From an uncultured Desulfobulbia bacterium (GTDB taxonomy: Bacteria > Desulfobacterota > Desulfobulbia > Desulfobulbales > SURF-16), in contig CAZUZJ010000001.1 in assembly GCA_964624225.1 (NCBI GenBank), positions 1 through 52,080 on the forward strand: a stretch of 52,080 nt of DNA, written 5' to 3'. The notes beneath the pieces were generated by a model, which searched no databases, had not been told where the DNA came from, and was given only the letters and a program-made list of their open reading frames with translations. Below are positions 7,981 to 23,201 of this stretch, one piece after another; the stretch's first letter is position 1; every line of letters starts with the position of its first letter. The translations under genes and the position numbers were made by a program.

Positions 7981-10458
7981 ATGGGATACCTGGAAGATGT
8001 AAGGCAAGCACTGTTGAATCGCTGCCCGGCGATGCTGTACGACTGGCTCCCTGATGGACGGCAAGAGGGGCGGTATTACGTCTGCGCTGACATTACGGGG
8101 GGCAGAGGAAATTCACTCAAGGTCAATCTTAAAACTGGCCGCTGGGAGGACTACTCGCAGGGCCACCAGCCTGGCACCTACGGCTCCGACCTAGTATCAC
8201 TCTATGCCGCAACCAAGGGCAAGGAATACAAAGAGGCCCTCCACGAACTCGCGGCGATGCTGGACATCAAGCCTGAGAAGCTCAAGCGCTCCGACCCGAC
8301 GGAGTGGCAGGTTATAACCCCAGTCCCGCGCAGCGCCTATGAAGTCGGGACGGACGGCCTGCCCAAACTGCCGGATGTCCCGCGCGCTAAGGGAAACGCT
8401 GGCTACTGGTCCTACGTTGACCGAGACGGGGAGCTTCTGTGCTTCCGATACCGCATGGAGAGCGGAGAGGTTAACGGGCACGGGAAACGCAAAAAGGAGG
8501 TCAAGCCGCTGACCTACTGCCGGAACAAGCACAGCGGGGAGTGCGCATGGATCACCCGCGACCTGCCGTCGCCCATGCCGCTCTACAACCTTTTCGACCT
8601 TGCGAACGTTCAGCCGAAGCGCGTGTTGGTCGTCGAGGGCGAGTCGTGCGCCTCGTCAGGGCAGCGCGTTCTTCCCAATTGGACGGTTACGACATGGTCG
8701 GGCGGCGTCAGGCGCGTGCGGATGGCCGACTGGTCGCCGCTTAAAGTCCTACCGCGCGAGACGATGGTCGTACTCTGGCCGGACAACGACCACGCCGGAC
8801 AGGAAGCTATGAACGACGTCATTGAGATGCTGGATCGGCCAGTTGATATTGTGAGACCCGACCAAGCATGGCCCGCTGGGTACGACATCGCAGACTTGGT
8901 TGAGCACGGCTGGGACACCGCCAAAATCGAGACCTTCATCGCCCAGAGCACGCACCGCGTGGAGCCCGAGCCACGAAAGGAACGCCCGGCGGTCGAACTC
9001 ACCGGCAAAGACTACTACGAGCACATGAAGGCGCTGTATCCCGCGATCCGAGACTCTGAGAGCCCGCTCTATGAGTCGGCTGGGGGCATCATCGTCCACA
9101 TCAAGCGGGACATATTCGGGAACCAGTACGTCAACCCCGTGGGGCCATCAGAACTCCAGGCGTGGGCGGCACGATACCTCGACTGCTACGGTTACACCGC
9201 ACACGGGCGGTCCCCGTGCCACATCTCGGACCCCCTTGCGAATGCTCTGGTCTACAACTGCAACGGCCAGCTCATGCCGCTCGTTCGTTACGCGGATCAC
9301 CCAATCGTCACGGCATCCGGCGATATCATTAACCGGCCCGGCTACAATCCGGTTGCCAAGTGCTACCTCTCAATCCCGGATGGCTACGACCCCGAAATGC
9401 CGCTCGACCAAGCAATCGACCTGATCATGGACCTGCTGGCAGACTTCCCTTTTGAAAACAAGGATGCTGATCTGGCCGCTGCAGTAGCCTATCCCTTGAC
9501 CGCGATACTCCGGGACAGGATCGCGGGGCCGGTGCCGCTTTTCAAATTCGAGGCTCCCGAGCACGGCACTGGCAAGAGCCTGCTCTGCGAAGTCCTGACG
9601 CACATATTCTCCACGCGGCCTTCGATATACGGGATGCCGAGCGAGGAAGAGGAAACGAGAAAGCAAATCACTTCGGCACTAATCAGGATGCCCCCCGTCA
9701 TCATCTGGGACAATGTTTACAAGATGGAAAGCGGATACCTGAAGAAGGCCCTAAGCGAGCCGGAGTGGACGGACCGGCTTCTGGGACGCAACAGGGAGAT
9801 AACCATCCCAATCCGCACGGTCTGGGCGGCCACGGTGAATAACCCGGTGATGTCCCGTGAGCTGCTCCGGCGGTCGGTGAGGGTCAGGATCAACGCCCAT
9901 GTCGAGAACCCGGAGGATCGGTCGGGGTGGAGGCACGATCTCCCTCATTACGCCAAGGAGAACCGGGCGGTATTGCTAAGCGCTTGGGTGGCCCTGGCGC
10001 GGGCCGGGCTTGAAGAGAGCACGAACGGCTTGCCGCGAATGGGAAGGTACGAGTCTTGGGTTAAAACCGTAGGGTCATCACTCGCAGCGGGCGGTTTTTC
10101 TGGCTTCCTCTCAACCCTTGCCGAGGACCGGAAGCTCTGCGAGGACCCAAAAACGGCGGGGATTAACGCCTTCGTTTCGGCCTGGGCGCAAGACTTCGGG
10201 AACCAGACTGTCACCGTCAAGCAGTTGGCCGAGCTAGCATCCCGGGTTGACGCGCTCAGCATCAGACGGCGAAAGGACGGAGCGGTGTCTGCCGAATCAA
10301 TGGGGTGGCTGCTGAGCACACTCAGGGGCAAGGTGATTGAAGGGCTACTAATTGACGGGCCGTACAAAAACGAAAGCGGACGCTCGTACCGGCTGGCTGG
10401 CGACATCGAAGAGCAGCAGAGAGATTTCAAGATGGAGGCATCTGGCGATGAATTCTAG
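7981..10458 (+). CDS. Bifunctional Toprim primase / P-loop helicase (P4-alpha / D5-like replication protein)
   Basis: GGTGG RBS. The Toprim motifs are VLVVEGESCA and LWPDNDHAGQEA. The Walker A motif is APEHGTGKSLL. Confidence 0.85.
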   Translation: MGYLEDVRQALLNRCPAMLYDWLPDGRQEGRYYVCADITGGRGNSLKVNLKTGRWEDYSQGHQPGTYGSDLVSLYAATKGKEYKEALHELAAMLDIKPEKLKRSDPTEWQVITPVPRSAYEVGTDGLPKLPDVPRAKGNAGYWSYVDRDGELLCFRYRMESGEVNGHGKRKKEVKPLTYCRNKHSGECAWITRDLPSPMPLYNLFDLANVQPKRVLVVEGESCASSGQRVLPNWTVTTWSGGVRRVRMADWSPLKVLPRETMVVLWPDNDHAGQEAMNDVIEMLDRPVDIVRPDQAWPAGYDIADLVEHGWDTAKIETFIAQSTHRVEPEPRKERPAVELTGKDYYEHMKALYPAIRDSESPLYESAGGIIVHIKRDIFGNQYVNPVGPSELQAWAARYLDCYGYTAHGRSPCHISDPLANALVYNCNGQLMPLVRYADHPIVTASGDIINRPGYNPVAKCYLSIPDGYDPEMPLDQAIDLIMDLLADFPFENKDADLAAAVAYPLTAILRDRIAGPVPLFKFEAPEHGTGKSLLCEVLTHIFSTRPSIYGMPSEEEETRKQITSALIRMPPVIIWDNVYKMESGYLKKALSEPEWTDRLLGRNREITIPIRTVWAATVNNPVMSRELLRRSVRVRINAHVENPEDRSGWRHDLPHYAKENRAVLLSAWVALARAGLEESTNGLPRMGRYESWVKTVGSSLAAGGFSGFLSTLAEDRKLCEDPKTAGINAFVSAWAQDFGNQTVTVKQLAELASRVDALSIRRRKDGAVSAESMGWLLSTLRGKVIEGLLIDGPYKNESGRSYRLAGDIEEQQRDFKMEASGDEF

Positions 10459-10461
10459 ATT

Positions 10462-10665
10462 GAAAACCGTCAAAACCTTCATTAATAGCCGCAATCCTGA
10501 CGGTTCTACCGGTTCGATACGGTTCTACATATTAAATTATAAATTAAAAATATAAATGAGTATGGAAAACCGTCAAAACTGGACAAACCGTCAGGATGTA
10601 AATTTTACATAGTTTTATGCGGCTGCATTTTTTGGTGTTGAAGAAAACCGACAGAACCTTCAGGA
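10462..10665. other. Putative replication origin: iterons flanking an AT-rich unwinding element
   Basis: GAAAACCGTCAAAAC occurs at 10462-10476 and 10565-10579. AACCGTCAGGA occurs at 10586-10596 and inverted at 10496-10506. CGGTTCTAC occurs at 10501 and 10520, and GAAAACCGACAGAAC at 10643. The AT-rich stretch is 10529-10560. Confidence 0.5.
10597..10609. promoter_or_regulatory. TGTAA-N3-TTACA palindrome (exact copy)
   Basis: tgtaaattttaca, in the origin-proximal intergenic region. Confidence 0.5.
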
Positions 10666-10698
10666 GGCAGGGTTGTTGGCGAGGATGTTATGGAGCGC

Positions 10699-10729
10699 GA
10701 ATTCTTCGCAATTATTCCCTTGACAAACC
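10699..10729. repeat. Target-site duplication (10699-10706, GAATTCTT) plus left inverted repeat (10707-10729)
   Basis: IRL is cgcaattattcccttgacaaacc. It matches the reverse complement of 13252-13274 at 19 of 23 positions. Confidence 0.75.
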
Positions 10730-10769
10730 AAGCAGTCTATGAGATGATTAAGGCGTAAAAGGAAACGCT

Positions 10770-11702
10770 ATGAATCTTATAGACCTAGCCCAACAATTCA
10801 GCAACGAGCGTGGCGCCAGAGCTTACCTCGAAAATCTCCTATGGCCCGATGGGCCGATCTGCCCAAAGTGCGGATTGGTCAATGAAGCCTACAAGCTCCA
10901 ACCTCGGAAGACTTCAAAGAGCCCCGTGCGCGAGGGAGTGTACAAGTGCAAAGGATGCGGCAAGCAGTTCACCGTGACCGTGAACACGATTTTCGAGGAT
11001 TCGCATATTCCGCTTCATAAGTGGATGATGGCAATTCACCTGATGAACGCCAGCAAAAAGGGAATGTCTGCGCATCAGATTCACCGCATGTTGGGCTTAG
11101 GCTATCGCGCCGCATGGTTCATGTGTCACCGCATTCGCTACGCTATGAATGCGGGGCCAGATGCCCCTAAGCTTAACGGCACAATCGAAGCTGATGAAAC
11201 CTATGTTGGCGGCAAGGTGAGAGGCAAAGGCTGTTATGTGGCCCGGCAGAAGAAAGCCCCGGTGGTGACTCTTGTCGAACGCAATGGAAAAGCCAGGTCG
11301 TTTCACTTTGAGCAAGTATGCGCCAGCAATCTGCGGCCTGTAGTCAAGGAACACATTGAGCAAGGCGCAAGCCTGATGACTGATGACTCGGGGTTGTACG
11401 CCAGCATGCGAGGCCACTTCAGCTCTCACGATGTAGTAAAGCATTCTCTTGGCGAATATGCGAGGCATGAAGTAGGCAAGACTGTTCACACCAACACAGT
11501 AGAAGGATTTTTCTCCATCCTGAAACGTGGAATTTTTGGGACTTACCATCATATCGGCAAGCAGCATCTTCATCGGTACCTGGACGAGTTTGACTTTCGC
11601 TACAATGCGAGAGATACTTCGGACGGTGAGCGATCTGAATTGGCTGTTAAAGGAGTAGTTGGCAAGCGACTTATGTACCGGGACTCATCCGGAACCGCAT
11701 AG
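10770..11702 (+). CDS. IS1595-family (ISXO2-like) DDE transposase with an N-terminal zinc ribbon
   Basis: CPKCG...YKCKGCGKQFTVTVNTIFEDSHIPLHKWMMAIHLM is the zinc-ribbon/HTH region. IEADETYVGGK is a signature of the IS1595 DDE domain. Confidence 0.85.
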   Translation: MNLIDLAQQFSNERGARAYLENLLWPDGPICPKCGLVNEAYKLQPRKTSKSPVREGVYKCKGCGKQFTVTVNTIFEDSHIPLHKWMMAIHLMNASKKGMSAHQIHRMLGLGYRAAWFMCHRIRYAMNAGPDAPKLNGTIEADETYVGGKVRGKGCYVARQKKAPVVTLVERNGKARSFHFEQVCASNLRPVVKEHIEQGASLMTDDSGLYASMRGHFSSHDVVKHSLGEYARHEVGKTVHTNTVEGFFSILKRGIFGTYHHIGKQHLHRYLDEFDFRYNARDTSDGERSELAVKGVVGKRLMYRDSSGTA

Positions 11703-11725
11703 TCGGCAAGTTTGACGGGTCTCTT

Positions 11726-12511
11726 ATGAATCGGCAACGTGAAGAAATCCCGTTCACAGTCAAGCTCGAAAGTGACGAGCCACTCAGTGTCAGGATAATC
11801 GCGGAAACACTGAGGGACATCGAAAATATGCTTTCTGACATTGAAAAGCATATCTTCAACACTTCCGACGCAAGAGCCCAATGGAAGTGGCCTGACGAAG
11901 CGGAACTTGAAGTGGTAGCGACTGTCAACGGCCTGGACCGAGCCCAACTAAGCCGAATTGTCGAAGAGGCAGAGAGGGGATTTGCAGAAGCTAAAGAGGC
12001 AAAAGGCAGCGTAAACTGGCCGTCTGGCTTTGGTCCCGCCGCGCAGCACTCCGCACGAAAGATTCTAGGCAGGCTTGAAAAACTTAACTCGATTATCGTT
12101 CGCGCAGAGGATCGCAGGCCCGTTACGATAACCACTGTGGAGATAGGGAAAAGAGTAACTGGAAAGCTGATCTCTCGACGGTGCGCCTATTCCTCCGTAG
12201 AGGGCAGGCTGGAACTTATATCCCATCGTGGGAAGCTCCGTGCGGCTGTGAAGGAAAACGTGACGGATTGTGTTGTTCAATGTACGTTTTCTGACGAACT
12301 GCTGGACGTGATCAAAGAACTCTTTGACAAAAGAGTAGTAGTCGAAGGCCTCGTAAATTACCGAGAAAATGGTGAGCCGATCTCTATAACGAAGGTAAGC
12401 AGCGTTACAGAGCGAAAACATGGCGCACCTCTTAGAGACTTCATCGGGTCCGCTCCAGACATAACCGGCGGCGTAAGCAGTGATGAGTTTATCGCCCGGC
12501 TACGGGGCTAG
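11726..12511 (+). CDS. Hypothetical 261-aa cargo protein (possible antitoxin or sensor partner of the PIN protein)
   Basis: Starts 23 nt after the transposase stop and lies inside the IRs. The C-terminal FIGSAPDITGGVSSDEFIARLRG resembles the tails of PIN-associated antitoxins. No other motif recognised. Confidence 0.65.
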   Translation: MNRQREEIPFTVKLESDEPLSVRIIAETLRDIENMLSDIEKHIFNTSDARAQWKWPDEAELEVVATVNGLDRAQLSRIVEEAERGFAEAKEAKGSVNWPSGFGPAAQHSARKILGRLEKLNSIIVRAEDRRPVTITTVEIGKRVTGKLISRRCAYSSVEGRLELISHRGKLRAAVKENVTDCVVQCTFSDELLDVIKELFDKRVVVEGLVNYRENGEPISITKVSSVTERKHGAPLRDFIGSAPDITGGVSSDEFIARLRG

Positions 12512-12558
12512 CAAGCGGCTGTCCCAAGCTGCACTTCCGATTCTTTTTGCGAGATAAT

Positions 12559-13077
12559 ATGAGCGAAGGGCCACAAATCCAGTACTGGGATGCTTGCCTG
12601 TTTATATCGCTTCTCATAAAGGAAAAAGATCGGGCGACAACCATTGAGAAACTTCTGGACAGGCAGGAGAGAGGTCACTTAGTAATTACCATATCGACGC
12701 TAGTTATTGCCGAAGTTCGCCCGGATGAATTAAACCCTGACCTCGACCCGATGCAGTATAAGCGCATTCAGGAGCTTTTTAACTCCGACAGACTAGATTA
12801 TCGAGCCGTGACACCCGCTATTGCCGAACGGGCTCGGGAGATCGGCGTTCAGCATCCTAAGCTACTGCCGCCCGATTGCATCCATATCGCGACGGCGCTG
12901 GCGGCAAAAGCGGCTGTTCTGTTTACGTTTGATGGCGTCGGACCCAAAAGGCGCCGTCCTGGAGAAATGGTCCGGTTTAACGGACTATTTGGAAATCCTC
13001 CACTTAAGATATGTGCGCCATATGTCGAGGAGGGACCACTGTTTGATGCGCAAAAAGCCCAAGAAACTGAAGGTTGA
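12559..13077 (+). CDS. PIN-domain nuclease (VapC-like)
   Basis: The acidic residues fit the PIN pattern: YWDACLF (Asp), VIAEVR (Glu), PPDCIHIATA (Asp) and FTFDG (Asp). TTG at 12547 is an alternative start. Confidence 0.75.
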   Translation: MSEGPQIQYWDACLFISLLIKEKDRATTIEKLLDRQERGHLVITISTLVIAEVRPDELNPDLDPMQYKRIQELFNSDRLDYRAVTPAIAERAREIGVQHPKLLPPDCIHIATALAAKAAVLFTFDGVGPKRRRPGEMVRFNGLFGNPPLKICAPYVEEGPLFDAQKAQETEG

Positions 13078-13210
13078 TAGAATCCTAAAAGAATTCCAGA
13101 AATCTGAGCAGTCATCCTCTCATCGCCGCGACGCCTTCAAGATCGAAGGTGATTTCGAGGACGCCGTGCGGAAGATCGCCGGAGCCAAGCCCAAACCGAA
13201 AGGGCGCTAA
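13046..13210 (+). CDS. Possible 54-aa basic protein overlapping the PIN gene 3' end
   Basis: Internal ATG of ORF 12821-13210, translating MRKKPKKLKVDRILKEF...AGAKPKPKGR. It ends 42 nt before IRR. No clear RBS. Confidence 0.3.
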   Translation: MRKKPKKLKVDRILKEFQKSEQSSSHRRDAFKIEGDFEDAVRKIAGAKPKPKGR

Positions 13211-13251
13211 GTTCACGCCTGCCCGTCAACGCTCTCACCATCCTACCACAA

Positions 13252-13282
13252 GGTTTGTCAAAGGCATAATTCCTGAATTCTT
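13252..13282. repeat. Right inverted repeat (13252-13274) plus target-site duplication (13275-13282, GAATTCTT)
   Basis: ggtttgtcaaaggcataattcct is followed directly by gaattctt. Confidence 0.75.
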
Positions 13283-13357
13283 CAAGCAGACGCTACCTCT
13301 TAAGGGGCGCTTAGGAGAGAAATTCAAGTTAGGTAGGTTTTATATGATCATCCACCT

Positions 13358-13576
13358 CTAGGTACATATGTGGCGTTCCCTTACCCTTTTTTCAAATGTC
13401 ACATAGTCACACCCAAACTCGCGTTCTACCGGATTTTTCTGGCTGACTCTGTGTATGCGGGTGAGATTACCCCTTCGGTCCTCTTCATACCAGATAATAG
13501 CGAAAGGTACTCCCAGTTTTTTTGCTAGCTTCAGGCCGACAGGGGCCGGCTTGAAATTGGAGCCATCGCCGTGACA
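13358..13576 (-). pseudogene. Start-less 72-codon open frame continuing the 13531-14106 gene in another frame (frameshifted gene or remnant)
   Basis: Hand translation: CHGDGSNFKPAPVGLKLAKKLGVPFAIIWYEEDRRGNLTRIHRVSQKNPVEREFGCDYVTFEKRVRERHICT*. Protein-like composition, but no ATG/GTG/TTG near its 5' end. It overlaps the end of the upstream ORF by 46 nt. Confidence 0.3.
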
Positions 13577-14106
13577 TCAATGCTTTCGTCGGCGACAGGG
13601 GCTAATTTGATGTCTGAGCAGAAGATTTCGACTTCATTTGAGTTACCGACGGATTCTTTACACTTAGTTCTTTCCTCGCGCAGCTGGCTTTTGAAATCCT
13701 TTGAAACCGACTTGATGAATCCAGTGACACTCAAGGCTTCCTTAGCTTTGGCTTCTTCAAGTTTCTGGCTGAGCCGCTCGGGGCTTAGCGCTCGCCGGAG
13801 AAGCTGGGAACGAGCGGAGATTCTCCAAGTGATGCCTTCGGGTACAAATTTCGGCCTGCCGCGATTTTCCTTCCCGACGGGTAGGAAATTCTTCTCGTTG
13901 GCCAGAAATTCTCCCAGCAGCCATAGCGCGCGAATCTGAACCTCCGTGGCGTAGTCCACCACTTCTTTCCCGGCCTTGACCCGCTGGGCATAAACTCTGG
14001 CCGCCGCAGCTAGGTCTGAGATTCGCTTAGCGTCTTGAATTGTTTTGGCTTGGAAAAGAAGCTTAGAAGCTTGGTCTATTTTCGCGAGGACGGCATCATC
14101 GACCAT
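13531..14106 (-). CDS. Hypothetical early protein; its helical N-domain resembles those fused to phage DNA methylases, and its C-end looks like a decayed methylase motif
   Basis: IQDAKRISDLAAAARVYAQRVKAGKEVVDYATEVQIRALWLLGEFL is the helical domain. EIFCSDIKLAPVADESIDVTAMAP aligns by eye with ...GD...LPDESVDLIxTDPPY, but the DPPY motif is lost. Confidence 0.6.
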   Translation of the reverse strand: MVDDAVLAKIDQASKLLFQAKTIQDAKRISDLAAAARVYAQRVKAGKEVVDYATEVQIRALWLLGEFLANEKNFLPVGKENRGRPKFVPEGITWRISARSQLLRRALSPERLSQKLEEAKAKEALSVTGFIKSVSKDFKSQLREERTKCKESVGNSNEVEIFCSDIKLAPVADESIDVTAMAPISSRPLSA

Positions 14107-14155: not shown

Positions 14156-14698
14156 CTACGGGGATAGCTCCAGATAGTGCAGCGCGAACTCCTGGAGGAG
14201 CCGCTGGCAAATCTCCTGCCCCAGCCTCCGGCTAGACGCGAATATGGGGTTGACCCCAAACTTGCAAGCCCAGCAGATCGCCGAGGCCAGCGCCGCGTTT
14301 CCCGACACCAGGCTGCGCTCGTATCCGGCCTTGATCGTTCGGGCGTCGGCTTCGATCAAGAGATAGGCCGTCATGCCGCGCAAACGGGCCAATTCTCGCT
14401 CGAAGCGCTCCCTGCCGTGTCCAACTACCCCGAAATAGTCTGAGAGGCTTTTACGCTCAATTACGATGGGCAGGAGTTCACCGTCAAGCTCGACCGAGTA
14501 GTCCCCGGCGTCCAGGGCGTAGCACAGAGTGCCGCCGTCGTCGAACTCACGGCGTGGCTTGGAGAAGGAATACGCCATTTTTTCCCTCGAATCGACCACA
14601 AAGGTTAAGACTGGACGCGGCCTAGCTTTTCCTGTTGCGATTGTAGTACTCCTGCCGTGAAGCGTACTTTCGGCGCTTGTCGGTTTGTGCACGGTCAT
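14156..14698 (-). CDS. ERCC4-type (Mus81/XPF-like) nuclease domain protein
   Basis: The ERCC4 motif series is VVDSREK, then GDYSV, then IERKSLSDY, then LLIEA. The start is uncertain: ATG at 14698 overlaps the upstream HNH gene by 77 nt. Confidence 0.65.
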   Translation of the reverse strand: MTVHKPTSAESTLHGRSTTIATGKARPRPVLTFVVDSREKMAYSFSKPRREFDDGGTLCYALDAGDYSVELDGELLPIVIERKSLSDYFGVVGHGRERFERELARLRGMTAYLLIEADARTIKAGYERSLVSGNAALASAICWACKFGVNPIFASSRRLGQEICQRLLQEFALHYLELSP

Positions 14699-15245
14699 GG
14701 ATTCTTTTGCATTCCCTGCACCACCGGCCTTTCCTCGATGGCCGACCGGCAAGGCTCGGGCCTTCATAGGGATGGCCCCTGGGACAATGAGTCTTGCGGG
14801 CGTTCTTCCCCAAAGATGCGTGATCGGTCTTAGCCACGTTAAGGAGATGGTGAGGATTTACGCACAGGGTGTTTTCGCAAAGATGGTGAAGTAGCCTATT
14901 GCTGGTTGGGAGCCTGTTGCCGGCGAGCACCCACGAGATTCGATGCGCATCGATGGGCCTACGGAGCACATTTAGGACGCCGTAGCCTTTATGGCTAAAT
15001 CCCGTCCAAAGCCAACATTTGCCGAGGCTGGGCTTGCCCGAGGGTGGAGGTCCATCTTTGTTGACATTTTTCCAAAATCGGGCGGCGACTCCAGCTCTCG
15101 GGACGCTGGTTTTTGCGTACCTCCCCGGTGGGCTCAGGATCGCAGTTTCGAGCGCATTCACGTCCATGCAGAATTGACTGTCCACGTCTTCCTCCCAGGC
15201 GTGATTGCATCCGTTCCAGTCGATTCTTGTGTTTGGGTTTGCCAT
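14622..15245 (-). CDS. HNH homing-type endonuclease (HNH_3)
   Basis: CWLWTGFSHKGYGVL...AHRISW...HHLCENTLCVNPHHL is the classic phage HNH_3 pattern. The start overlaps the upstream stop (TAATG). Confidence 0.85.
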   Translation of the reverse strand: MANPNTRIDWNGCNHAWEEDVDSQFCMDVNALETAILSPPGRYAKTSVPRAGVAARFWKNVNKDGPPPSGKPSLGKCWLWTGFSHKGYGVLNVLRRPIDAHRISWVLAGNRLPTSNRLLHHLCENTLCVNPHHLLNVAKTDHASLGKNARKTHCPRGHPYEGPSLAGRPSRKGRWCRECKRIHDRAQTDKRRKYASRQEYYNRNRKS

Positions 15246-16189
15246 TAGCTCTTTGCCTCCCTCACGACAAATCTCCGGCTTTCGGGGCTGATCTTGGTCT
15301 GCACCGAGGAAACCCCCCTCTTGCCCCGCAGGGTGGCTAGAACGCTCATGACAGAGTTCATGGCCTCCTGCGACTCGAAGCTGAGCGTCGCCTTCCAGGA
15401 CGGCCTTACGCGCTCCCAGTTTGCCCGCCATCCGGCGGCGCAAGCGGAGTTGGACAGTCCCATCAGGCATTTTAGCTCCGAGTCGGCCTCCGCCTTAAGT
15501 TCTTCGAATTCCTCTATTTTCTGCTGGGCGTACTGCCGTCTTGTGATTGCCGCCAGCCATTTGTCCTCTGGGACCTCCGCCGGTTGGTCGGGCCACCGGT
15601 CGTTGCTGACCGCTTCCCAGAACTCCCGAATCGCTGGCTTGGCGTACGTTTCCCAGAACTCGCCCAGGCTCAGTTCATCGCCCCAATTGTCCCATACGCT
15701 CACTGGGAGAAGCTCCTTCTGGCCGGAGGCATGGTGGGCGACGAAGAAATCACAGGTCTCGACGTCGAATATGTCCATCATGGCGGCGCACTGGAGCTGG
15801 TAATGAGCGGGCACTACCCCGCGCTGCATGGACCTAAGCAGCCGGTCGCTGGACGGGCTTTTTAGCTCGACCAGGCATTTTTCTTCCGCGTACCAAGCGT
15901 CCGCGAAGCAGCGAAGGAATTCGAATTCTTGATGCTGGGCGCATACCTGCCGCTGAGCCTTTTCTTTGTGGGGGACGGCCTGTTCGTAGAGCCGGAAGGT
16001 TTCGTCCTCCATTTCCAGCCCAAACTTCATGGCCTCAGTCTGCGGCGGCTTCTCGCGCCGGCCGGTCTTGATCTGCCAAAGCTCATAGGCCGTCTGCCAC
16101 GGGTCGTAGCCAACGATGGCGGCGACCTGCGACGCCCCGATCTGAACCTCGGATTTCATCACTTCTGGGTCAATAAATTTTACGGCCAT
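15245..16189 (-). CDS. YqaJ-type recombination exonuclease (lambda Exo-like PD-(D/E)XK)
   Basis: IGASQVAAIVGYDPWQTAYELWQIKTG is a YqaJ N-terminal signature. LVELKS and YQLQCAAMM are also present. Confidence 0.8.
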   Translation of the reverse strand: MAVKFIDPEVMKSEVQIGASQVAAIVGYDPWQTAYELWQIKTGRREKPPQTEAMKFGLEMEDETFRLYEQAVPHKEKAQRQVCAQHQEFEFLRCFADAWYAEEKCLVELKSPSSDRLLRSMQRGVVPAHYQLQCAAMMDIFDVETCDFFVAHHASGQKELLPVSVWDNWGDELSLGEFWETYAKPAIREFWEAVSNDRWPDQPAEVPEDKWLAAITRRQYAQQKIEEFEELKAEADSELKCLMGLSNSACAAGWRANWERVRPSWKATLSFESQEAMNSVMSVLATLRGKRGVSSVQTKISPESRRFVVREAKS

Positions 16190-16567
16190 TTACTTCGCCT
16201 CCTTTTCCAGCAGCGGCTCGCTGCAATCCCACTCGTAAATCGGCTCTTCGCGTGCCGGGATAACCATTTCCGGGATGACTTTCTCCGGCACCTGCCGTAC
16301 CCCAACCTGCTTCCTCTTGCAGCAGTCTCTCCTTGAGGTTATAGCCCGAAATTCGATTTCGCCAAACTTGGTAACAAATGCGATGGAGCCCTCGAAATCC
16401 TTGTCGTACTCGTTTCGGAAGCTCCCGAGCGCGTTAATGATCCCTTCGACGCGCCCAGTACAAATGTCTACGAATATCACGTGATCGAACGGGAGACCGG
16501 CCTGTGGGTGCTGCTCATAGAAATCCGCGATCATCCGCAGGCTGTCAGCGTACTCTTTGTTTGTCAT
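16190..16567 (-). CDS. Hypothetical early protein (125 aa)
   Basis: GGAGGAAGG RBS. The stop abuts the exonuclease start. Confidence 0.65.
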   Translation of the reverse strand: MTNKEYADSLRMIADFYEQHPQAGLPFDHVIFVDICTGRVEGIINALGSFRNEYDKDFEGSIAFVTKFGEIEFRAITSRRDCCKRKQVGVRQVPEKVIPEMVIPAREEPIYEWDCSEPLLEKEAK

Positions 16568-16595
16568 CCTTCCTCCTTGAATTTCGTCACGGGCC

Positions 16596-17087
16596 TTACC
16601 GGATGGGCCGTCCCTTGACTACAACTCCGCGAGGGATGTCGCCGGTCAGGCTTCTCAGGTAGAGATCGCCCCCTGCGCTCAGCTTGGCATTATCGGGTAG
16701 GCTCGTCAGCCCGCTCAGGTCGAGAGCGCCCCCTGCGCTCAGCTTGGCATTGGCAGGTAGGCTCGTCAGCCCGCTCAGGTCGAGGTAGCCCCCTATAGCT
16801 ATATTGCCCTTCCACCTCGGAAAGCGTTTCTCAAGCCCCATACGCGCCCTGTGCTCGTCTTGGACAGGATTGAACCACGCAGGCAGCACATCTTGGTCAA
16901 CGGAGAACTCCCACTCGTCCATGTTCAGCCAGTTATCGCCGGTAGGAACGATCTCGACCTTGACGAAATCCGGCACCGGCTTGTCGTCAGGCAGTTTGCA
17001 GTGCTCGATGATGTCGGTGTGACTATCCGAATCCTTTAGCCATAAGACGGACGTTCTGGTTATCACGCTGGACGCGAATCGGCACAT
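16596..17087 (-). CDS. Hypothetical protein with C-terminal 20-aa leucine-rich tandem repeats
   Basis: ATG at 17087 follows the upstream TAA. The repeats read LDLSGLTSLP(A/D)NAKLSAGG. Confidence 0.65.
   Translation of the reverse strand: MCRFASSVITRTSVLWLKDSDSHTDIIEHCKLPDDKPVPDFVKVEIVPTGDNWLNMDEWEFSVDQDVLPAWFNPVQDEHRARMGLEKRFPRWKGNIAIGGYLDLSGLTSLPANAKLSAGGALDLSGLTSLPDNAKLSAGGDLYLRSLTGDIPRGVVVKGRPIR
16654..16795. repeat. 60-bp tandem repeat, about 2.4 copies
   Basis: ctcaggt(a/c)gag...gctcgtcagcccg units start at 16654, 16714 and 16774. Copies 1 and 2 are near-identical. Confidence 0.8.
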
Positions 17088-17088
17088 A

Positions 17089-18192
17089 TTACCTTGCCTC
17101 CCTGATCTTGTTGACCAACTCGCTAAACCTCGATTTATCAATAGCCGCAATCGTCCCGGAAAGGACTTCCATGCGCGTCTTGCCCGGCCCGGTTTTCATT
17201 TGGGCTCCTTCGTTCAGCAGGAACTCAAGGGCCGCCGCGGGGTCGTCCTGCCCGTTCTCATCGGGCTTTATCATCCCGCGCTTCCGAAACTCCCTGAAAA
17301 GAAGCCGCGTCTGGCCGACCGTGAGCGTGTTCTCCATTGGTGGATTTGGCTCGCTGCCCTGGGGGGCCGGGCCCTCTGCTGGCTTGGCTTCGGGCTTTCG
17401 CGGCGGTGCTGGCTGCGGCCCCTCTCTCGGCGGCGGCGGAGCCTTGGGCGCAGCGGGCTTTTGCTCCGGTTCTGTCGCGTCTTCGGGCTCTGTTCGCTTG
17501 ACCGGCCCGATCTCACCGGGCAAGGGGTCGGCGTCCTTCCTGCGCCAGCGGCGCACGTTGCCCTTGAACGTCTTGACCCACACCTCGACCGCGTGCTTCG
17601 CCATGAATTCCCGCTGGAACTTTCTGCGGTAGACGTTTGCCCCGATGGAAAGGGACTTGCAAATCCGGCTTAGCGCGTTGCTGGCCGTCATTTCTGCGGC
17701 GTCCGCCTTCGTGGTTTCCTTATTGTTGATGAAAAATCTGCCGTCACCGACCGCCTGGCCGACGTAGCATTCGTGGACCACGAGCATCCAGCGCTGAAAG
17801 ATCGGAACGTCTTTCTGGCCCGGCTCTACGTCGTGGTCGCGGGAAATTCCGGAGAGTGGAATCATTGACCAGGCCCCCTGCCCGAAAATCTCCGAGAGAC
17901 ACTCGCGCAGATAGTTTGCCTCGATGTAAATTATTCCTTCGGGCCGGATTTCGATATCGTCGTCTTCGACGATCATGTGCTCCCGTAGCTTCTGCTTTTC
18001 CTCCGGGGTCATTCTCTCCGGCAACTTTGTGGCGTTCGCATAGAACAGAGCCAAGGTTTCGGGCGGCACGATAACCTCGCCTACGTCCTTCGATAGAGTC
18101 TGCAATGCGTCCTGCTTGTCCGGCAGCGTGGCAAGTTCCTGCCGCAGGGGTTCATCATCCTGCGGGCTCGCGGGCACGATTTCTTCAGTCAT
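17089..18192 (-). CDS. Rad52/Sak-like single-strand annealing protein with a Pro-rich linker and a C-terminal domain
   Basis: YIEANYLRECLSEIFGQGAWS and ADAAEMTASNALSRICKSLSIGANVY fit the Rad52-fold SSAP pattern. The gene is adjacent to the YqaJ exonuclease. GGAGG RBS. Confidence 0.65.
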   Translation of the reverse strand: MTEEIVPASPQDDEPLRQELATLPDKQDALQTLSKDVGEVIVPPETLALFYANATKLPERMTPEEKQKLREHMIVEDDDIEIRPEGIIYIEANYLRECLSEIFGQGAWSMIPLSGISRDHDVEPGQKDVPIFQRWMLVVHECYVGQAVGDGRFFINNKETTKADAAEMTASNALSRICKSLSIGANVYRRKFQREFMAKHAVEVWVKTFKGNVRRWRRKDADPLPGEIGPVKRTEPEDATEPEQKPAAPKAPPPPREGPQPAPPRKPEAKPAEGPAPQGSEPNPPMENTLTVGQTRLLFREFRKRGMIKPDENGQDDPAAALEFLLNEGAQMKTGPGKTRMEVLSGTIAAIDKSRFSELVNKIREAR

Positions 18193-22406: not shown

Positions 22407-23201
22407 CTAGGCTTTCAGCAGCCCGGAACCTGCCTTCAGTATCTGGTCCGCCGCATGGAATATTTTCTGTGCTGATTTTTCCGGTATTTCAGAATGCCCG
22501 ATCCACGCCTGGATATATCCTCTCGATTCGTCGGCCCCTGGCAAACCCAGCGATTCGCCAACGATCATCGCCACGGCCTCGGCCTCGGCCTCCTGCAATG
22601 TCCTGGGCGTCGCGTCTCCGTCCAACTGCTGGCCTTTCTCGCAGTGCCCCAGCAGGATATGGGCCATTTCGTGAAATAAGGTTTTGTAGGGATGCTGGGC
22701 CAGAGGATTAATCGCCAGCTTGCGGCCCGGCTCGGCGTATCCCTGGCAGTTGCCGTTGGTCAACTCGAACGGCGCGCGCGTGATATTCAGCGCCTGCAAA
22801 GCGGCCTGTTCGTTCCACGTCGGCAGGGGCTCTGGCTGGTACTCCTGGCCTTCGGTTTGCGCCAGCACAAACCAGTTATTCCGATACACAAAGCGGGTGT
22901 ACGTGTACTCGGTCTCCGTTTCCCGGCCTTGCTCGTCCTTCTCGGTTTTGCGAATCTTCTTTGTGATCGGCATGCAAAGGGCTATGGCTTTTTGGCCCTT
23001 CATAACGTGTCGCCCGAGTTCCTTCCAGCGGTTAAAGCTCGCAATCGGCCCTATTGGAATCTGTCTCATCTCGCATTCAACCATGGCTAGCAGTTGATTC
23101 GCGGTCGAATACCGCCAGAAAGTCGAGTACGCCTTGCTGATCTTGCCTGGCTCATTCGTTGCTGACTTAAGCAACTCATTCCACTTAACTTCGCTTTCCA
23201 T
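22407..23201 (-). CDS. ArdC-like protein: ssDNA-binding N-domain plus HExxH zincin domain (anti-restriction type)
   Basis: FNRWKELGRHVMKGQKAIAL is an ArdC N-domain signature. HEMAHILLGH is the metalloprotease motif. GGAGAA RBS. Confidence 0.7.
   Translation of the reverse strand: MESEVKWNELLKSATNEPGKISKAYSTFWRYSTANQLLAMVECEMRQIPIGPIASFNRWKELGRHVMKGQKAIALCMPITKKIRKTEKDEQGRETETEYTYTRFVYRNNWFVLAQTEGQEYQPEPLPTWNEQAALQALNITRAPFELTNGNCQGYAEPGRKLAINPLAQHPYKTLFHEMAHILLGHCEKGQQLDGDATPRTLQEAEAEAVAMIVGESLGLPGADESRGYIQAWIGHSEIPEKSAQKIFHAADQILKAGSGLLKA

Follow-up and report, generated by a model that had tools for sequence, protein, structure and literature searches.

Structure of the element and its ends

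We analyzed a 52,080-nt stretch of DNA (the window) from an uncultured Desulfobulbia bacterium, positions 1 to 52,080 of contig CAZUZJ010000001.1, and focused on a block of 2,568 bp at positions 10707-13274 that an initial annotation had described as an intact IS1595-family transposon inserted in a phage genome. The block opens with a left inverted repeat (IRL, 10707-10729, + strand), which is followed on the + strand by a gene for an IS1595-family DDE transposase with an N-terminal zinc ribbon (tnp, 10770-11702, 310 aa), a gene for a 261-aa protein (11726-12511), a gene for a PIN-domain nuclease (12559-13077, 172 aa) and a basic open reading frame (ORF) of 54 aa (13046-13210), and it closes with a right inverted repeat (IRR, 13252-13274, - strand). 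An 8-bp duplication, GAATTCTT, is perfect at 10699-10706 and 13275-13282, and both copies abut the inverted repeats (IRs) directly. As annotated, 23 nt separate the transposase stop codon from the next ORF, and the 261-aa and PIN genes lie inside the ends, between tnp and IRR. The PIN ORF had been given a TTG start at 12547; its most likely start is the ATG at 12559 called by gene callers.

IRL, cgcaattattcccttgacaaacc (also written CGCAATTATTCCCTTGACAAACC), and the reverse complement of IRR, aggaattatgcctttgacaaacc (also written AGGAATTATGCCTTTGACAAACC), were identical at 19 of 23 positions and differed at IR positions 1, 3, 10 and 13. As a chance test, the adjacent 23 nt were scored for inverted identity at all ~10,800 pairs of identical 8-mers spaced by 0.7-10 kb in the window. 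A single pair, the element ends, reached 19/23, while the runner-up pair scored 15, and the best inverted identity in 50 Markov-simulated windows was 13-17, below 19 in every case. In addition, a degenerate end motif, GSAATTATKCCYTTGACAAACC, matched the window at the two element ends only, with 0.01 matches expected by chance. Two of the four mismatches arise at the IR tips (CGC in IRL, AGG in IRR). A difference between the two repeats, TTATTCCC versus TTATGCCT, is common to three related elements (L043, L044 and L045), so two of the four mismatches are ancestral asymmetries. A 9-bp duplication with the IS end at 13273 was also considered and was rejected, as the base preceding the left GAATTCTT is C, not T. 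The element ends, CGCAATTAT and AGGAATTAT, agree with 'ggnnatTAT', which we take to be the ISNwi1/ISNha5 consensus, and membership in this subgroup is provisional; the database names of the relatives read 'IS1595 family transposase' only.

The transposase matched PF12762 over the full profile (1e-36, 1-153 of 153), the zinc-ribbon family PF12760 (1e-11) and the NCBIfam model NF033547 'IS1595 family transposase' (9e-59, 198.9 bits versus a cut-off of 75). In an alignment of 47 sequences (the window protein and 46 relatives), the zinc-ribbon cysteines C31, C34, C60 and C63 (CxxC...CxxC) and residues D142, D205, N242, E245 and K252, the last seven residues past E245, were conserved in at least 95% of sequences. 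By analogy, D142, D205, N242-x-x-E245 and K252 would be the catalytic residues. Because the zinc-ribbon cysteines and the DDE(K) residues are all conserved, the transposase looks intact. Furthermore, a promoter-like site at 10720-10748 (+ strand) matches the consensus at 10 of 12 positions: its -35 element, TTGACA, is the conserved IRL core, and a 17-nt spacer separates it from a TG-extended -10 element, GATGAT. The site lies 22 nt upstream of the tnp ATG and may serve as the tnp promoter. An Rfam scan of 10300-13700 returned nothing but sub-threshold noise from eukaryotic miRNA and snoRNA families.

The GC content of the element is 51.1%, compared to 58.0% in the rest of the window and 53.5% in the lowest other 2.6-kb block. 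The initial annotation had noted a departure from the phage backbone in both GC content and Shine-Dalgarno usage. The former holds but the latter does not, since AGGA/GAGG sequences are obvious before tnp and the 54-aa ORF only. The lower GC content, together with the absence of the element after the primase gene of related phages, suggests a foreign origin.

With an ISXO2/IS1595-type DDE transposase, a zinc ribbon, DDE(K) residues, short IRs and an 8-bp duplication, the block is an IS1595-family element, as initially proposed, and its ends, duplication and transposase are intact. By composition it is also a transporter insertion sequence (tIS): there is one transposase, tnp and IRR enclose the 261-aa and PIN genes, and the same gene pair occurs elsewhere without a transposase. 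Our best explanation, to which we give a probability of about 85%, is that the block is an intact tIS of the IS1595 family; a toxin-antitoxin (TA)-like or abortive-infection role is the most likely function of its cargo.

Related elements share the ends and the duplication

Back-translated transposase peptides were used to seek relatives and led to 29 IMG/VR loci and to more than 544 loci in GTDB genomes, 80 of which were kept. Among the GTDB loci kept, the closest transposases came from metagenome-assembled genomes of Acidobacteriota/Terriglobia (68%, 61% and 59% identity), and the clade of the element occurs chiefly in Acidobacteriota and Alphaproteobacteria. The loci carry a GGnAATTATnnnCTTGACAnA-type motif 46-96 nt (mostly ~60-95 nt) before the transposase start and an inverted copy of it 1.8-6.8 kb downstream; the IRL motif ..AATTATnCnCTTGACA.. 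is similarly placed in dozens of related loci. In total, 47 related loci in genomes and viral contigs, with transposases 45-68% identical, bear GGnAATTATnnnCTTGACA-type IRs together with a perfect 8-bp duplication. With the boundary offsets taken from the window element, the duplication fell at the predicted junctions in 40 of them, and in the other 7 the left junction was shifted by 1-2 nt. These relatives thus validate independently the ends and the duplication size that had been proposed for the window element. The duplicated targets are 66% AT compared to 42% in the 500-nt flanks, and this preference for AT-rich targets fits insertion into a 39%-GC gap of a 58%-GC phage.

Backbone and cargo slot

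The initial annotation had counted three cargo ORFs. The 54-aa ORF overlaps the 3' end of the PIN gene by 32 nt and sits between the cargo slot and IRR, and it matches no known Pfam, NCBIfam or PADLOC family. Homologues with 43-49% identity and a conserved FKI..F..A..KI motif lie just upstream of the IRR side in four relatives (L033, L043, L044 and L045). The cargo of L043 is a DUF433 protein with a PIN-like protein, that of L044 is a 475-aa protein, and that of L045 is an M78-peptidase/HTH protein with a DUF4411 protein. Because L043, L044 and L045 keep the homologue with different cargo, the 54-aa ORF is part of the IS backbone and the true cargo is two genes. The subclade is accordingly organized as IRL - tnp - [cargo slot] - small ORF - IRR.

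All 47 delimited relatives exceed a minimal IS in length and carry passenger ORFs, 101 of which were surveyed with Pfam. The survey found Peptidase_M78 with HTH, DUF4411, DUF433, PIN_10, HigB toxin and SocA/Panacea antitoxin, as well as N6_Mtase, Methylase_S, N6_N4_Mtase, NA-iREase1 and nested IS66/DDE_3 elements. Many passengers of the sister elements are thus TA, restriction-modification or defense-type genes. Passenger genes in an IS1595 element inside a phage had been described as unusual; passengers turn out to be normal in this clade, but the phage location is rare, a related IS1595 transposase being present in 2 of 50,697 deposited phage records. Insertion sequences are seldom found in phage genomes. 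Nested transposable elements were seen in several sister tIS: a DDE_3/IS630-like gene lies past the small backbone ORF in L043 (5937-10598), and IS66-type genes are nested in two others (L067 and L118).

Further copies of the element

The exact transposase was found on contigs from three samples (SRR28264341, JGI 3300029893 and SRR5011273). The 14.2-kb contig from SRR28264341 (L001) shares 99.9% identity with the window and covers both junctions, the contig from JGI 3300029893 (L002) spans the left one, and two contigs from SRR5011273 (L003 and L040) also carry the exact transposase. Over the element, the phage-borne copies from the three samples are 100% identical, and they share one phage site. 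These contigs bear on the alternative that the repeats are coincidental or that the block is an assembly chimera of host IS DNA and a phage contig. Because the same junctions recur in independent assemblies from three samples, a chimera is excluded, and coincidence is countered by the match at 19/23 IR positions and 8/8 direct-repeat positions, which exceeds all 50 simulations, and by the recurrence of the end motif and 8-bp duplications in 47 relatives. This alternative, which could draw on the lack of a recovered empty site and on one short-read assembly that breaks at the element end, is effectively refuted. The break lies inside IRL in the SRR5011273 assembly and leaves a 1-nt gap (L040 ends at 10723, L003 starts at 10725); its cause may be a variant, or a branch of the assembly graph, at the IS end.

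A second copy was found in SRR31012008 (L125), which is 99.2% identical over window positions 11043-13273. Its homology stops at the predicted right end (13273/13274), a further point against coincidence or chimera, and then runs into ACTTAAGAAGGCTATTTC..., which is absent from the window. The presence of a near-identical copy at a second locus implies that the element moved in the recent past. The initial annotation had named a lack of other copies bounded by these IRs as a refutation; this second copy exists, and the 47 relatives share the end structure and the 8-bp duplication. A diverged sister element in SRR20958212 (L033) encodes a transposase, a 261-aa protein and a PIN protein that are 71%, 67% and 78% identical to those of the window element, followed by a small ORF of 58 aa and one extra ORF, and has an IRR-like end, GGGTCTGTCAAAGGCATAACCCCGG. 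The extra ORF (89 aa, 2434-2703) lies between the small backbone ORF and IRR and is absent from the window element. Searches of IMG/VR with the IRR sequence and with the L125 junction yielded no other copy. A DNA search with the whole element returned nothing from deposited phages and, from plasmids, weak ~200-nt matches to transposase genes only.

The 261-aa protein and its PIN partner

The 261-aa protein belongs to no Pfam, NCBIfam or PADLOC family, and none of 92 family members tested matched Pfam. A word-indexed search returned 8 clusters only, and a profile search returned 1,587 representatives at E <= 1e-3, with 65 at E <= 1e-30; no homologues were found in deposited phages or plasmids. 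To describe its gene context, we compared seven independent lineages (the window with L125; L033; L034/L035; L036; L037-L039; L126/L127; and L128). A PIN gene immediately follows the 261-aa gene in all seven, down to 27% identity, and the two genes sometimes overlap by 11-14 nt; the PIN domain of L128 was confirmed by hhalign (99.7% probability). In three of the seven, the pair comes after an IS1595-family transposase, at 100%, 71% and 32% identity to the window transposase. In the most divergent of these (L126, 184-2586), the transposase is followed by the pair at 33% and 41% identity, and an IRL-like sequence, CGCAATTATCCCTTGACAGCAC, is present. In another lineage (L034, 4933-9849; L035, 3691-8607), the pair lies within a tyrosine-integrase island and is directly followed by the gene for a 1117-aa Type ISP restriction-modification enzyme, a context that resembles a defense island.

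An AlphaFold (AF2) model of the 261-aa protein based on a 92-sequence alignment replaced a 9-sequence model (pLDDT 61.6) and reached a pLDDT of 89.7 and a pTM of 0.67. In the model, a new N-terminal alpha/beta domain (residues 1-145) is joined to a C-terminal five-stranded barrel with one helix. Foldseek searches with the C-terminal domain returned OB folds in the PDB, namely those of class IIb aminoacyl-tRNA synthetase anticodon-binding domains, SSB, Stn1/Ten1, the RecG wedge and ExoVII. The whole protein matched models of uncharacterized phage proteins (E ~1e-9), namely Q6NE06 of Leptospira phage LE1 and a DUF6575 protein. The PIN protein matched PF01850 (1e-11) and is of the compact, ~170-aa single-domain type. 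Of its acidic active-site residues, E52, D106 and D125 do not vary among 7 homologues, and D12 is found in all those whose N-terminus was called. PDB sequence searches gave no meaningful match for the PIN protein or the 261-aa family, and no NCBIfam VapC model matched the PIN protein.

The pair might instead be a nucleic-acid-processing accessory, in which an OB-fold single-strand binder and a FEN-like PIN protein aid transposition or phage replication and repair. Adjacency to IS1595-family transposases of three very different lineages would fit such a role, as would the resemblance of the C-terminal domain to the OB folds of SSB, RecG wedge and ExoVII as much as to tRNA-binding ones, and the insertion next to a replication module. 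We consider it unlikely, however, since chromosomal and integrase-island examples of the pair have no transposase with them and the PIN protein is of the compact type. Moreover, none of the 47 delimited sister tIS holds a close homologue of the pair by tblastn, so the pair is not needed for transposition.

The tight two-gene operon with the PIN gene second and the compact PIN protein with four acidic residues (D12, E52, D106 and D125) resemble VapBC. In contrast to VapBC, the pair lacks a VapB-like small DNA-binding antitoxin, and its PIN protein has no VapC-model or PDB sequence match. The 261-aa protein has no RHH, AbrB, Phd or HTH domain of the kind found in small upstream antitoxins; because this defining feature fails, we did not file the pair as VapBC. 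The obligatory pairing, the operon order, the defense-island context and the cargo types of the sister elements argue for a TA-like or abortive-infection module with the PIN protein as effector, a role for which we put the chances at roughly even.

Insertion site and phage genome

The element is inserted in non-coding DNA that separates the phage primase/helicase gene from a convergent gene, with the last iteron-like repeat 42 nt before it. The adjacent origin-like sequence, outside the element (10462-10657, 38.7% GC), contains GAAAACCGTCAAAAC repeats (two perfect copies and one with 2 mismatches), two ACGGTTCTAC repeats, a 21-nt inverted repeat and an AT-rich core at ~10530-10560. The element had been placed beside the phage origin; the position next to an iteron-bearing, AT-rich gap is borne out, and the gap is consistent with a replication origin. 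We reconstructed the empty site as ...GGAGCGCGAATTCTTCAAGCAGACG..., which holds no long ORF over the junction; the sole candidate is a possible 31-codon ORF, MEREFFKQTLPLKGRLGEKFKLGRFYMIIHL. This putative ORF starts at 10691 (10691-10706 joined to 13283-13359), has a good Shine-Dalgarno sequence (GAGGA) upstream and is split by the insertion.

The nearest phage relatives have primase proteins 43-45% identical to that of the window and no transposase or PIN gene after the primase gene; in one of them (L123), a 112-nt gap after the primase gene is followed directly by convergent genes. No close relative of the phage primase was found in IMG/VR. The window is a tailed-phage genome with genes for a large terminase, a tail spike, a virion structural protein and the primase/helicase, and the phage also encodes a lysozyme, a YqaJ exonuclease, an N6/N4 methylase, an Mgm101-type annealase, an ERCC4 nuclease and an ArdC-like protein. 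A scan of 20 large ORFs in the window revealed no integrase. On the - strand, a recombination cluster (14159-18192) comprises the ERCC4-type nuclease, the YqaJ exonuclease (15245-16189) and the Mgm101/Rad52-like annealase (17092-18192), and a 264-aa protein (22410-23201) combines an ArdC N-terminal anti-restriction domain with an M78/zincin-like peptidase region.

Mobility and role of the element

Several observations count against an intact tIS with TA-like or abortive-infection cargo. A 25-mer across the empty-site junction had no match in IMG/VR, and a 22-mer had two matches only in JGI metagenomes (L041, 3518-3539; L042, 1695-1716). We rejected both as empty sites, as they lie in unrelated coding sequence on near-identical contigs without flank similarity; such chance matches indicate that 22 nt is too short a query for JGI metagenomes. 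The search for the empty site that the initial annotation had proposed thus recovered no such allele in either collection. The last base of IRR gives a tip, AGG, that departs from the tip of L125 (CGG) and of the closest relatives (CGG or CGC), and this deviating base might impair the right end or the activity of the element. The phage-borne copies all share one site and so offer no evidence of activity within this phage. The left junction of L125 was not recovered, and the flank search for L125 covered the window, with ~2.4 kb of the 54.5-kb source contig lying outside it. Concerning the cargo, the PDB matches of the OB fold are weak (E ~1e-3), PADLOC-DB v2 gave no significant match for any of the four element proteins or the 7 PIN homologues, and the 261-aa upstream partner greatly exceeds classical VapB antitoxins in size and lacks a recognizable DNA-binding domain.

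Some of these points would also fit a real tIS that is now fixed and immobile in the phage and acts as an acquired gene cassette, its duplication being intact through lack of time or selection. The identical copies at one site in three samples, the lack of an empty site in IMG/VR and JGI metagenomes and the deviating IRR base all lean this way. On the other hand, the transposase ORF is intact with all zinc-ribbon and DDE(K) residues, the duplication is perfect, and the 99.2% identical copy elsewhere implies that the element has moved recently. We regard fixation as possible but rather doubtful. The recent hop that the initial annotation read from the intact duplication is plausible, short of proof, given that the phage-borne copies share one site and are identical over the element.

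For the intact tIS that we favor, the transposase would bind the conserved ends, and the whole unit would be inserted via staggered 8-bp cuts, preferably in AT-rich DNA. The PIN protein may act as a toxic RNase or nuclease effector, with the 261-aa protein as its cognate partner, either a neutralizer or a nucleic-acid-sensing specificity subunit. The module might then favor the keeping of the element and the phage genome, or interfere with competing phages. More tentatively, the 261-aa OB-fold protein and the PIN protein could form an undescribed toxin/immunity or abortive-infection system on an IS1595 tIS shuttle. Under this broader proposal, which we hold with reserve, a large nucleic-acid-binding partner would take the place of a classical antitoxin in controlling the PIN protein, the pair would repeatedly ride IS1595-family tIS whose transposases are 32-71% identical to each other, and the clade would carry TA, restriction-modification and defense cassettes between chromosomes and phages. 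If true, the phage would be armed for competition or for its own maintenance.

Transporter IS are a described category and, according to the literature, are confined to the IS1595 and IS66 families (TnCentral preprint 10.1101/2021.05.26.445724; Siguier, Gagnevin & Chandler 2009, Res Microbiol 160:232, cited in PMC3129680). The window element resembles IS1595 tIS in its single zinc-ribbon DDE transposase, short terminal IRs, 8-bp duplication and passengers within the IRs. It differs from them in its uncharacterized OB-fold and PIN cargo and its phage location, and its subclade differs in the conserved 54-aa ORF between the cargo slot and IRR. Type II TA pairs, including PIN toxins, have been described inside Tn3-family transposons (Lima-Mendez et al. 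2020, mBio; PMC7157771). These are alike in that a transposable element carries a two-gene module of the PIN-toxin type with the presumed partner upstream, acquired repeatedly and independently. In contrast to them, the window element belongs to another transposon family, has no resolvase or res site, and pairs its PIN protein with a 261-aa OB-fold protein, not an RHH, AbrB, Phd or HTH antitoxin.

The element by itself leaves IS1595 biology as known, and the uncharacterized but widespread PIN module is its less ordinary part; this cargo module and the cargo-slot architecture are the parts that deserve follow-up. The 47 cargo-carrying relatives, with exact ends, a cargo slot and a small backbone ORF, offer a start for studying how tIS acquire cargo, and the comparative set is also a basis for characterizing the unannotated 261-aa/PIN family (~1,600 representatives). 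A tIS that brings a nuclease module into a phage would represent a concrete route for TA and defense-type genes between bacterial chromosomes and viruses.

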